From the UHGV virus genome UHGV-0149956: a DNA stretch of 64,000 nt; one strand, written 5' to 3'. Within the stretch, counting starts at the first letter, position 1, and each line of letters opens with the position of its first letter. The DNA is from a virus. Below the pieces are notes generated by a model that was not told the DNA's origin, searched no databases, and worked only from the letters and a program-made list of their open reading frames with translations. This document shows positions 37,184-55,030 of this stretch, piece after piece. The position numbers and the translations under genes were made by a program.

Positions 37184-37200
37184 TAATTTATTAGAGCAAT
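37184..37200 (-). promoter_or_regulatory. C1 operator
   Basis: Reverse complement ATTGCTCTAATAAATTA, 16/17. Confidence 0.55.
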
Positions 37201-52833: not shown

Positions 52834-52966
52834 AAAGACCTCATAAGCGAATTTTTTACGCTCCAGGACAAACACCCATTCACAGCCAATACCGACTGAC
52901 TCGATCCCTTTAGAAGGCACAGGATAATGCAAATCACTTGTTAGCTACGTTTCAAAGATATACATT

Positions 52967-52983
52967 ATTGCTCTAATTAATTT
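52967..52983 (+). promoter_or_regulatory. C1 operator between lyz and ssb
   Basis: ATTGCTCTAATTAATTT, 16/17. Confidence 0.55.
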
Positions 52984-53002
52984 ATTTTATTAGGTAAGAT
53001 AA

Positions 53003-53491
53003 GTGGCACAACGCGGTGTAAACAAAGTCATCCTGATTGGTACCCTGGGGCAAGACCCGGAGATCAGGTATATACCAAATGGCGGAGCGGTCGGAAGACT
53101 CAGCATCGCAACGAATGAATCATGGCGCGACAAGCAAACGGGCCAACAGAAAGAGCAAACAGAATGGCATAAAGTCGTTTTGTTCGGAAAACTTGCTGAA
53201 ATTGCGAGTGAATATTTACGAAAAGGTTCTCAGGTCTACATCGAAGGGAAACTTAAAACCCGTAAGTGGACAGATGACGCCGGTGTAGAACGTTACACGA
53301 CGGAAATTATCGTCAGCCAGGGCGGCACCATGCAAATGATCGGCGCTCTCCGTGACGATTCACAGTCCTCAAATGGCTGGGGGCAATCAAACCAACCTCA
53401 AAACCACCAGCAATACAGCGGTGGCGGTAAACCTCAGAGCAACGCCAATAACGAACCTCCAATGGACTTTGACGACGATATTCCGTTTTAA
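53003..53491 (+). CDS. ssb: single-stranded DNA-binding protein
   Basis: GTG start; N-terminal OB fold near-identical to E. coli SSB ([53 protein letters not shown]); C-terminal MDFDDDIPF tail. Confidence 0.95.
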
Positions 53492-53590
53492 CGAATAGCT
53501 CCCCCCCCGAGATATTGCTTTCGCTGGTGGGAAAACATTCCTGACCCACCTGAAGGCGCAATACATCAGGTTTTAAGCAGAGGAAAGGCT

Positions 53591-54241
53591 ATGAATAACA
53601 TGACAACGAAAGAGCTTTTTAAATTCCTTCCCAAATACAAAGCTCACAAAAACGTTAGTGCATCGAAAATCAAAAATGTTGTTATTTTCGGAGTAACTGA
53701 TGCCCCACTTTGGGGCTGCATCGAACTCGTTGAACCAAAAGGGGCAACAGTTTGTGTTGACGCAATGTTTTTACAAAAACACCGACCAAAAACTGGCGGG
53801 TATCTGATCGTTTATGAAAACGGTTATCTGTTCTATGCCCCGGAGAAACCATTTGAGCAATGCTATGGCCTGGTTAACGACGCCTCCGAAAATGGAACCA
53901 CGGTCATCATTACGGATGACAACGGCGTGATGATTAATCTTACCGGGAGCGTAACTATTTCTGCTGGTGGCATCACCACCCAGCAAGAAGAAATCGACCT
54001 TGAAGCAGCCGACTTCTCTGACGCGCTAATGTGGTTGAAGGAAGGCAAGAAAGTTGCCCGACGCGAGTGGAAAGGCGAAAAGCAATTCTGCTGGTTAGTT
54101 CTCGCTGGAAGCGTCAATTTACACGACATTCAGGTTCCTTATGGTGACCATTTTGTATTGAAAGATGCACAAAATATGGACAGCGTTTGGTTGCCGTCTG
54201 TGGATGATTTACTGGCCTGTGACTGGTTTGTAGTGGAGTGA
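53591..54241 (+). CDS. two-domain protein with C-terminal DUF2829-like domain
   Basis: C-terminal 75 aa DFSDALMWLKEGKKVARREWKG...WLPSVDDLLACDWFVVE matches the DUF2829 pattern from memory. Confidence 0.5.
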   Translation: MNNMTTKELFKFLPKYKAHKNVSASKIKNVVIFGVTDAPLWGCIELVEPKGATVCVDAMFLQKHRPKTGGYLIVYENGYLFYAPEKPFEQCYGLVNDASENGTTVIITDDNGVMINLTGSVTISAGGITTQQEEIDLEAADFSDALMWLKEGKKVARREWKGEKQFCWLVLAGSVNLHDIQVPYGDHFVLKDAQNMDSVWLPSVDDLLACDWFVVE

Positions 54242-54247
54242 TTTAAC

Positions 54248-55030
54248 GTGGAAAATACTAAAGCAATTCAATACCGCCTGCGTAATGGTCAGAGTGTCGA
54301 AGTGACCATCAATAATGATGGTGTGCCTGGCGAAAAGGTTTCGATCTCTGATCTGGCTATCGAAAAAACCATCATGTGCCACCTTGGCTTTACTGAAGAA
54401 GTGAGCAAAAAGCATGGTGTAGCAATCTGGAGCGCAATGGATACTGGTATGCGCAGATTCATTACTGCTCGTACCCCAGGGATGACCATGATGGACCTCA
54501 TGCAGATTGCACCGCTGTTTGAATGTGAGCCTTTAGATGTATTCAGCAATCCAGCTATCTGCCAGCAGCTATATGGTGAGATGAAACTCGCGGTTACCCC
54601 CATTGTGCTGCATGAAGGATCGCTTGCTGGCGTGTGGAAAGTGGAGCGTATTTCAAGCTACATGCCTTTCCATGTCAACGGCGTAATCACTGGTGAAAAT
54701 CAACCTGTTTCCGTTATAAAGTCAGACCTCAAGCGCGCAATTCTTGAAGCAAGTTGTCGAGTTGTCGGCCTGGGCAAACAGTCTTATGTTTCCTTCCCGG
54801 CTGGCCCTGAAGGCCCGGCAGAAATTCTGATTATGGATGCCGATCTGCTCTGGCAAATACAGTTTCTGATTGGCAAAAGCATCATCCGCGCTGAAGAACT
54901 CGATCAGTACATTACCTGCACGATGACGGATGAAGTCAAAAGTGTGGCTATAGCCAATGCCCGTAACCTATGTCGTGCTGCATTAACAGAACTGCAAGAA
55001 AACACCACGGAAGAAGTGGAAAGCGATTAA
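54248..55030 (+). CDS. hypothetical protein
   Basis: 260-aa ORF with acidic C-terminus. Confidence 0.45.
   Translation: MENTKAIQYRLRNGQSVEVTINNDGVPGEKVSISDLAIEKTIMCHLGFTEEVSKKHGVAIWSAMDTGMRRFITARTPGMTMMDLMQIAPLFECEPLDVFSNPAICQQLYGEMKLAVTPIVLHEGSLAGVWKVERISSYMPFHVNGVITGENQPVSVIKSDLKRAILEASCRVVGLGKQSYVSFPAGPEGPAEILIMDADLLWQIQFLIGKSIIRAEELDQYITCTMTDEVKSVAIANARNLCRAALTELQENTTEEVESD

Follow-up and report, generated by a model that had tools for sequence, protein, structure and literature searches.

A Tad2-like domain with an altered ligand pocket fused to a Pfam-less N-terminal domain beside ssb in a P1-like phage-plasmid genome

The gene and its setting

The sequence analysed here, referred to as the window, is a stretch of 64,000 nucleotides from the virus genome UHGV-0149956, and the gene of interest is an uninterrupted open reading frame (ORF) at 53591-54241 on the plus strand, which has an ATG start and encodes a protein of 216 amino acids with a Tad2-like (DUF2829) domain at its C-terminus. 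The ORF starts 99 nt past the stop codon of ssb and in the same frame as that stop. The sequence gaggaaagg, which resembles a ribosome-binding site (RBS), is located at 53580-53588 (plus strand), just ahead of the ATG at 53591, and inspection of the spacer sequence revealed no ATG, GTG or TTG in frame between the ssb stop codon and this start. Three parts of the protein can be distinguished: an N-terminal domain with an oligonucleotide/oligosaccharide-binding (OB) fold (residues 1-97; 53591..53881, plus strand), which belongs to a large phage family absent from Pfam; a β-rich linker with the sequence TTVIITDDNGVMINLTGSVTISAGGITTQQEEIDL (residues 98-137; 53882..54001, plus strand); and the Tad2-like domain (DUF2829, PF11195; residues 138-216; 54002..54238, plus strand), whose allele is characterised here as "WKG, short-insertion".

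The gene was initially annotated, from the letters of the sequence, as a neighbour of ssb in a P1-like phage, and both statements hold. The upstream ORF matches the single-stranded DNA-binding protein family PF00436, and at 94-98% identity the region aligns with Salmonella phage SJ46, P1, other Punavirus genomes and many phage-plasmids of E. coli and Salmonella. Moreover, ORFs of the sizes of darB, prt, pro, lyz, ddrB and darA are found in the window in P1 order. The loci used for comparison include those of P1 (L001, NC_005856), SJ46 (L002), NZ_LR130557.1 (L004), the D6-like CP088573.1 (L005) and NZ_CP031917.1 (L006).

The C-terminal domain belongs to the Tad2 family

Residues 141-215 match the Pfam profile PF11195 "Tad2-like" along its full length (positions 2-73 of 73). 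The score of 66.8 bits (E=2.4e-18) compares with a gathering cut-off of 25 bits, and the match is far beyond chance. It bears out the initial assignment of the C-terminal 75 residues to DUF2829, and the residues quoted in support of that assignment (DFSDALMWLKEGKKVARREWKG ... WLPSVDDLLACDWFVVE) are exact. When the protein was compared with PDB sequences using phmmer, the matches were to ModTad2 (9eib, E=2e-10; 8v3e, 3e-10), to SPO1 Tad2 (8sme, 7e-6) and also to SptTad2 and HgmTad2/AcrIIA7.

An AlphaFold2 monomer model built on a 33-sequence alignment has a mean predicted local distance difference test score (pLDDT) of 80.4. In this model two confident domains, residues 11-97 (pLDDT ~90) and residues 141-216 (pLDDT 81-90), are joined by residues 98-137, which are predicted with low confidence (pLDDT 50-56). 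All 24 Foldseek matches against the PDB at E<=0.001 are Tad2 structures, namely ModTad2, SPO1 Tad2 (apo or with 1''-3' or 1''-2' glyco-cyclic ADP-ribose, gcADPR), HgmTad2/AcrIIA7 and SptTad2; their template modelling (TM) scores, normalised to the target, are 0.63-0.90, and the expectation that the predicted structure would resemble Tad2 is thereby borne out. The best match is ModTad2, with a target-normalised TM score of 0.90 and 41% identity. The α1 helix, which forms the tetramer in solved relatives, is almost invariant across homologs. The C-terminal part is a genuine Tad2-family domain.

This assignment is correct but not new, since the gene has already been annotated and surveyed. Its RefSeq product name is "DUF2829 domain-containing protein", one homolog is named "Thoeris anti-defense Tad2 family protein" in UniRef, and in a 2025 preprint based on DefenseFinder, 56% of the P1-like and 93% of the D6-like phage-plasmids are reported to carry "Tad2 AcrIIA7 (anti-Thoeris)" (10.1101/2025.09.12.675607). 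Our own counts agree with these survey frequencies. About 500 plasmids in PLSDB carry a P1-type ssb, and 228 of them match the Tad2-like gene to some extent; among 5,426 complete E. coli genomes 212 match it, nearly all on plasmids. The allele of the window itself, at >=80% coverage, was found in only 17 plasmids of PLSDB and 26 of the complete E. coli genomes. The Tad2-like gene is accessory: it is present in SJ46 and in approximately half of the P1-type plasmids and missing in P1. In the literature we found no experiment on any P1-type Tad2, the 18 Tad2 proteins assayed in a 2025 sponge-diversity preprint not having been checked.

In one E. coli homolog, P0024 (306 amino acids), the Tad2-like domain is preceded by an N-terminal phage tail-fibre repeat (PF03406); this protein may be a recombinant or the product of mis-assembly.

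The ligand pocket is altered and under purifying selection

In SPO1 Tad2 the cyclic ADP-ribose isomer 3'cADPR is gripped by W25, W73, N26 and D79, helped by T78, S76, H71, D67, I63 and T65, and N26 contacts the phosphates of the ligand. In HgmTad2 the corresponding contact is made by N22 together with G23 of both protomers, which bind the diphosphate, and the W21A/N22A mutant does not bind. Alignment to 8sme indicates which of these positions are retained in the window protein and which are not. On the one hand, W25, W73, D79 and S76 are kept as W160, W200, D206 and S203, and in the 33-sequence alignment the first three of these do not vary at all and S203 hardly varies. On the other hand, N26 is replaced by K161, the Gly before the Trp by E159 and T78 by D205, and further changes are found at H71 (S198), D67 (Q194) and T65 (D192). 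The AAA codon of Lys161 is located at 54071..54073 (plus strand), so that the loop which is GWNG in canonical members reads EWKG here.

The replacement of the phosphate-contacting Asn is specific to one clade. Among 212 Tad2 domains collected from two database searches, a sample that is skewed toward relatives of the query and does not represent family-wide frequencies, this position is occupied by Asn in 186, by Lys in 24 and by Pro in 2. All 24 Lys-bearing clusters fall in the P1/D6 clade to which the window belongs, and of the 188 relatives sampled outside this clade, 186 retain the Asn. In the Lys161 clade the Lys co-varies with the residue at the position of T78, which is Asp in 20 clusters and Ala in 3, whereas the proteins with Asn have Gly, Thr or Ser there. 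A further difference concerns the insertion between β2 and β3, which comprises 16 residues compared with 24 in SPO1 Tad2 (residues 36-59) and in which no α2 helix is predicted; other natural Tad2 homologs have still shorter insertions. In the family, the V-shaped dimer is built by the β2-β3 insertion with its helix α2, and some members have a second pocket made by the same insertion. The insertion of 35-41 residues (β2-β5) that makes the cyclic-dinucleotide pocket of the HgmTad2/AcrIIA7 type was not found, the window protein having 16 residues.

The Tad2 domains of the window and of the D6-like locus L005, which carry the same allele, differ by 13 synonymous and 5 non-synonymous changes. The resulting rates of synonymous and non-synonymous substitution are dS=0.32 and dN=0.026 (dN/dS=0.08), and the Lys161-type Tad2 domain is under strong purifying selection. 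Decay into a pseudogene was considered for the domain and is ruled out by this ratio.

Considering that the pocket is altered and yet maintained by purifying selection, the ligand may differ from that of the founding member. A change of ligand is the most economical reading of the altered pocket, and the preferred ligand is probably not identical to the 3'cADPR bound by SPO1 Tad2; its name cannot be read from the sequence. The range of candidates in this family is broad. Between them, Tad2 homologs counteract Thoeris of types I, II and IV as well as CBASS and Pycsar (PMC12393519), and the ligands of the family include at least 3'cADPR, histidine-ADP-ribose (His-ADPR), N7-cADPR, cyclic dinucleotides, and cyclic UMP and CMP (cUMP/cCMP). 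The initial annotation had proposed an anti-Thoeris function or another signalling-molecule sponge. Owing to the altered pocket the anti-Thoeris half of this proposal is not simply transferable, and the other half is preferable because the Tad2 family binds several ligands.

The N-terminal domain and the linker

The region ahead of the Tad2 domain had been described as an unrelated N-terminal domain of 140 amino acids. That a separate N-terminal part is fused to the Tad2 domain is correct, but its size has to be revised to a fold of ~97 residues followed by a linker of ~40 residues, and "unrelated" does not suit an OB fold whose family is repeatedly fused to sponge domains. A profile built from the N-terminal regions of 18 homologs found one significant sequence in the PDB, the Dec protein of phage L (6e3c, E=5.2e-6). 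In the HMMER alignment, profile positions 13-120 correspond to Dec 14-121 and thus reach into the Dec spike, whereas hhalign aligns 79 columns of the OB-fold part only (93% probability, E=3.5e-7). In an AlphaFold model computed for residues 1-105 on their own (pLDDT 86.6), the elements follow the order β0-β1-β2-β3-α-β4-β5-α, as described for Dec. Taken together, the profile and model comparisons identify the N-domain as an OB fold distantly homologous to the OB domain of Dec. In PHROG the N-domain is assigned to phrog_11049, 872 and 9467 (function unknown), and Dec to phrog_3018 "head decoration protein".

The linker has a pLDDT of 50-56 in the monomer model, and distant homologs have unrelated linkers in its place. 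HMMER partly aligns it with the Dec spike, hhalign does not, and it has no match to the tail-fibre repeat PF03406.

An exhaustive hidden Markov model (HMM) search of 1.84 billion representative proteins with the N-domain gave 5,204 matches at E<=1e-3, of which 2,995 were at E<=1e-10; counted at 50% identity, the family has no fewer than 5,204 clusters. Stand-alone members, with lengths of 83-130 amino acids, are numerous, and no Pfam match was found for them. The 141 best N-domain matches under 500 amino acids (P0102-P0244) were taken as a sample; 45 of these are up to 130 residues long, 59 have 131-200 residues and 37 are longer. A Pfam scan of the 141 representatives detected PF21825 crAss001_48 in 19, PF11195 Tad2-like in 16, PF13876 Phage_gp49_66 in 5 and the PF24729 Acb2/Tad1 hairpin in 3, and the remaining matches, P68HR and DUF7130, are single and have E-values near the 0.001 limit. 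PF21825 is the 3'cADPR sponge "Sequestin" and PF13876 is the Acb4 family (PMC12265669). The same study discovered Sequestin through its fusion to Tad2 and Acb4 in a search restricted to Pfam families, which therefore could not see the Pfam-less N-domain. In relatives such as P0068 and P0115, the N-domain, Tad2 and Sequestin are combined in a single chain. The structural neighbours of the N-domain in BFVD are uncharacterised phage proteins and one MazG fusion.

The invariant set of the N-domain family, in window numbering, consists of P14, Y16, C18, H19, K20, V22, A24, K26, I27, K63, H64, P66, G69, G70, Y71, V73, Y75, D77, G78, Y79, S81, S83, P84, F88, E89, G91 and Y92. Basic and aromatic side chains are frequent in this set, which in this respect resembles the pockets of known sponges.

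As a separate observation, matches to the N-domain/linker profile recur 12-28 times along each of five very large proteins (P0099, P0100, P0101, P0104 and P0154; 2,182-4,559 amino acids), at profile positions ~43-114. These may be repeat proteins with the GGY/β-rich motif in common.

The two halves are exchanged among P1-like plasmids

The N-domain and linker of locus L004 are of the SJ46 type, with a dS of 0.016 and zero differences in the linker, whereas the Tad2 domain of the same protein is of the window type (dS 0.04 compared with the window and 0.73 compared with SJ46). The window-type N-domain is in turn also joined to canonical GWNG Tad2 domains, in P0015 and P0019. The exchange point between the halves is the invariant EEIDLEAADFSDALMWLK junction. 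From these combinations it follows that the two halves act as separate cassettes, and the substitution pattern indicates that the N-domain and the Tad2 domain recombine independently among P1-like plasmids.

A frameshifted homolog is present in L006 (2501-3155), where the leftover ORF of 179 amino acids carries the RefSeq name "MW1434 family type I TA system toxin", TA standing for toxin-antitoxin.

Promoter, operators and neighbouring genes

The ssb gene (53003..53491, plus strand; PF00436, E=6.9e-40) encodes a single-stranded DNA-binding protein near-identical to that of P1 and is the first gene of a presumed operon; the phage lysozyme gene lies beyond it on the opposite strand. The ssb promoter region (52938..53000, plus strand) is identical to the annotated P2ssb/P1ssb promoters of P1, and the monovalent C1 operator Ossb, ATTGCTCTAATTAATTT (52967-52983, plus strand), is base-for-base the same as in P1. 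In the window the P1 C1 operator consensus with up to 3 mismatches occurs at 15 sites, compared with 0.27 expected by chance. The operator-like sites include 3734-3750, 19643-19659, 37184-37200 and 52967-52983, and the number of sites would fit a complete P1-type immunity regulon across the window. The scan for promoters and terminators detected no terminator-like site between ssb, the Tad2-like gene and isaA. The only promoter-like site it returned is a weak one inside the Tad2-like gene, and since this is fewer than in shuffled sequences, an independent promoter is unsupported. Given that the promoter and the C1 operator are the same as in P1 and that no terminator-like site was detected, early, C1-repressed co-transcription of the Tad2-like gene with ssb is a reasonable inference.

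The intergenic spacer (53492..53590, plus strand) contains a run of eight C, a start-less remnant of the "leader" ORF of P1 and SJ46, and the RBS-like site. In the alignment, identity to P1 and SJ46 stops exactly at the ssb stop codon. The C run is located at 53501-53508, inside the segment that replaces the P1/SJ46 leader sequence.

An isaA-like gene of 260 amino acids (54248..55030, plus strand; phrog_2326, E=1.5e-149, function unknown) starts 6 nt past the stop codon of the Tad2-like gene, and its product is 95% identical to residues 60-320 of P1 IsaA. It adjoins the Tad2-like gene in every locus examined (L002-L006), and searches of its product against Pfam, PDB, NCBIfam and PADLOC gave no match. 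The IsaA protein of P1 (320 amino acids; L001 2122-3084) consists of a 56-residue leader joined directly to the 260-residue isaA body. The possibility that P1 IsaA is a divergent Tad2-like copy was rejected, as there is no similarity. Because the leader is joined straight to the isaA body in P1, the reference P1 looks like it lost the Tad2-like gene through a clean deletion of the gene body. The P1 leader is shared with the annotated N-terminus of SJ46 gp048, a DUF2829 protein of 281 amino acids (L002 2122-2967). In the window the start of the leader is lost and the Tad2-like ORF begins at an internal Met, and in SJ46 gp048 the start codon has probably been mis-called.

The region between ssb or other genes and isaA is a variable accessory spot. 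In L004 (1-1994), Avs4 (AVAST type 4) and AbiGi-family genes lie just upstream of the Tad2-isaA pair; therefore, defence and anti-defence cargo share this spot. In the D6-like L005 (1992-3157) a dUTPase gene is located directly ahead of the Tad2-like gene, and some E. coli records contain single-chain dUTPase-Tad2 fusions, such as P0066 (241 amino acids). An anti-signalling hotspot beside SSB has been described for N4-like phages in a 2026 preprint, and the ssb-adjacent position of the Tad2-like gene may be compared with it by analogy only.

Interpretation and alternatives

What function could this two-domain protein perform? The reading that we consider reasonably probable is that it is an early, C1-repressed, accessory anti-immune-signalling protein composed of two modules, of which the Tad2 module has a remodelled pocket. 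According to this proposal, ssb and the Tad2-like gene would be transcribed early together from the C1-repressed ssb promoter. The Tad2 module would oligomerise through its conserved α1 helix, as in the tetramers of solved relatives, and the pockets between the subunits of the oligomer would sequester a nucleotide-derived immune signal, so that the effector of the host would never be activated. The substitutions of Asn by Lys161, Gly by Glu159 and Thr/Gly by Asp205, together with the truncated β2-β3 insertion, have remodelled the pocket and probably shifted its ligand preference, and the N-terminal OB module most likely adds a second binding or assembly function. Oligomerisation, ligand binding, the timing of expression and the anti-defence phenotype are all inferred.

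For the N-domain a more specific role can be suggested tentatively, with somewhat less than even weight: its family may be a new class of immune-signal sponge or an anti-signalling module, and the window protein may then be a double fusion whose Tad2 half has a shifted specificity. This suggestion follows from guilt by fusion, because the clear Pfam partners of the N-domain are four independent sponge families, the kind of reasoning by which Sequestin was found, and it draws further on the strikingly invariant basic and aromatic residues of the family; the list of the top 150 matches from which the partners were read is, however, skewed toward the query.

Several aspects weigh against the proposals above. 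First, the Asn that contacts the phosphates in both SPO1 Tad2 and HgmTad2 is the very residue replaced by Lys161, and the short insertion spans the region of α2 and the V-shaped dimer, so that both oligomer and pocket could differ or be lost. Second, the N-domain of the window departs from its family consensus at near-invariant positions (C18A, D77N, S81F, S83A and G91C) and evolves fast among P1-like alleles (dN ~0.25, dN/dS 0.43-0.91). A module that is degenerating or that binds a protein would account for the fast evolution and the loss of consensus residues more readily than a conserved pocket for small molecules, and these features therefore speak against the sponge role of the N-domain as well. 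Third, the co-transcription with ssb is deduced from the absence of a predicted terminator only, and the function of every P1-type Tad2 has been assigned by homology alone.

The protein could instead be a plain type I Thoeris sponge that binds 3'cADPR in the same way as SPO1 Tad2, with Lys161 simply taking the place of Asn and the N-domain being a passenger or a tag for solubility or oligomerisation. The shared fold and the retained W160, W200, D206 and S203 agree with this, Lys could conceivably contact the phosphates too, and most Tad2 homologs tested inhibit type I Thoeris. It nevertheless appears unlikely. ModTad2, the closest solved relative, inhibits type II and not type I Thoeris, and the Asn does not seem to be freely replaceable because it is kept in nearly all sampled relatives outside the clade. 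Besides that position, the insertion and two more pocket positions differ, and the repeated association of the N-domain family with sponges speaks against a mere passenger.

We regard it as quite improbable that the Tad2-like domain has a role other than that of a sponge, or no role, whether as an AcrIIA7-like anti-CRISPR, an "MW1434" toxin, a transcription regulator or a decaying remnant. The toxin name attached to the frameshifted homolog in L006, a weak match to phrog_643 "transcriptional regulator" (E=1.3e-6), the occurrence of the same domain in AcrIIA7 and the loss of the key Asn could be cited in its favour. However, decay is excluded by the low dN/dS, and AcrIIA7 has itself been shown to be a sponge for gcADPR and cyclic dinucleotides. 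To our knowledge E. coli has no Cas9, which counts against an anti-CRISPR role of the AcrIIA7 type. The toxin name lacks HMM support, because no NCBIfam model matches: at E<=1 there was no relevant match for the labelled L006 homolog, the isolated Tad2 domain or the SJ46-type allele, and at E<=0.1 there was no match for the full window protein. A PADLOC scan of the Tad2-like protein and its neighbour returned nothing, and thus no sign of a defence system.

Hardly any credence can be given to a Dec-like capsid decoration protein, in which the OB fold and a trimerising β-rich stalk would display the Tad2 domain or carry it into the next cell. In its favour are the homology of the N-domain to the Dec OB fold, the β-rich linker that is poorly predicted as a monomer and HMMER-aligned in part to the spike of Dec (a spike that lacks order in monomers and as a trimeric β-helix is required for capsid binding), and the packaging of other anti-defence proteins by P1, with the Dar/Ddr genes close by. 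Against it, the gene is located in the early ssb operon under C1 control and nothing resembling a late promoter is seen upstream of it, P1 virions are reported to have no decoration proteins, the hhalign alignment stops before the spike, the N-domain is assigned to phrog_11049/872 and not to the phrog_3018 of Dec, and many family members are stand-alone proteins of 83-130 amino acids without a stalk.

The preferred reading of an anti-immune-signalling protein with a remodelled pocket goes beyond the existing annotation in three respects: the clade-specific short-insertion pocket with Lys in place of Asn, which is under purifying selection; the cassette-like shuffling of the two halves; and the fusion evidence for the N-domain. 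Clinical E. coli, Shigella and Salmonella often harbour P1-type phage-plasmids, and about half of these carry the Tad2-like gene. Its pocket occurs in at least two sharply distinct alleles, exchanged as cassettes by recombination, and this amounts to a natural experiment on how sponge specificity follows the defences of the host, in which the short-insertion allele is a candidate for a new ligand specificity in a notably versatile family. Should the N-domain turn out to act as a sponge or to assist one, a function could be assigned to thousands of phage proteins.

Comparison with known systems

The closest relative of known structure is ModTad2 from a Myroides odoratus prophage (8v3e, 9eib), a sponge for cUMP and for the His-ADPR of type II Thoeris. 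It gives the best sequence match (E=2e-10), its target-normalised TM scores are 0.77-0.90 at 37-41% identity, and it shares with the window protein the fold of α1 and an antiparallel sheet as well as the W...W.PS..D signature. In contrast to the window protein, ModTad2 is a stand-alone protein of 88 amino acids whose loop reads GWNG and whose longer β2-β3 insertion builds a second pocket. In the window protein the loop is EWKG, the insertion is 8 residues shorter and an N-terminal extension of 137 residues is present. SPO1 Tad2 (gp34.65; 8sme/8smf/8smg), which counteracts type I Thoeris as a 3'cADPR sponge and is the founding member, belongs to the same Pfam family and has the same fold. It is a single-domain protein of a lytic Bacillus phage, whereas the window protein is fused and resides in a temperate enterobacterial phage-plasmid.

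The SJ46-type Tad2 of P1- and D6-like phage-plasmids has the same ssb - gene - isaA locus and two-domain architecture, is 60% identical overall, and its α1 helix and C-terminal strand are identical to those of the window protein. It differs in having GWNG, the long insertion PEGQYPARMEAIKGYFPGD and Gly at the position of T78, and the Tad2 domains of the SJ46 type and the window type are separated by a dS of 0.67-0.73.

Phage L Dec (6e3c) shares with the N-domain the order of the OB-fold elements and the core motif P..GGY...G..Y....AFE..Y. Unlike the window protein, Dec is a late virion protein (phrog_3018) with a trimeric spike, and it lacks H19, K20, H64, D77, S81 and S83, which are near-invariant in the N-domain family.

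In its overall design the window protein resembles Acb4-Tad2 of Pasteurella phage Pm86, Tad2-Sequestin, and Acb4-Sequestin of phage Ab09, in which a Tad2-type sponge and a small phage domain are found in one chain. Fused sponges can be functional, as is the case for Acb4-Tad2 and Acb4-Sequestin. In those fusions both partners are proven sponges, whereas the partner in the window protein is the Pfam-less N-domain, at most a candidate sponge.

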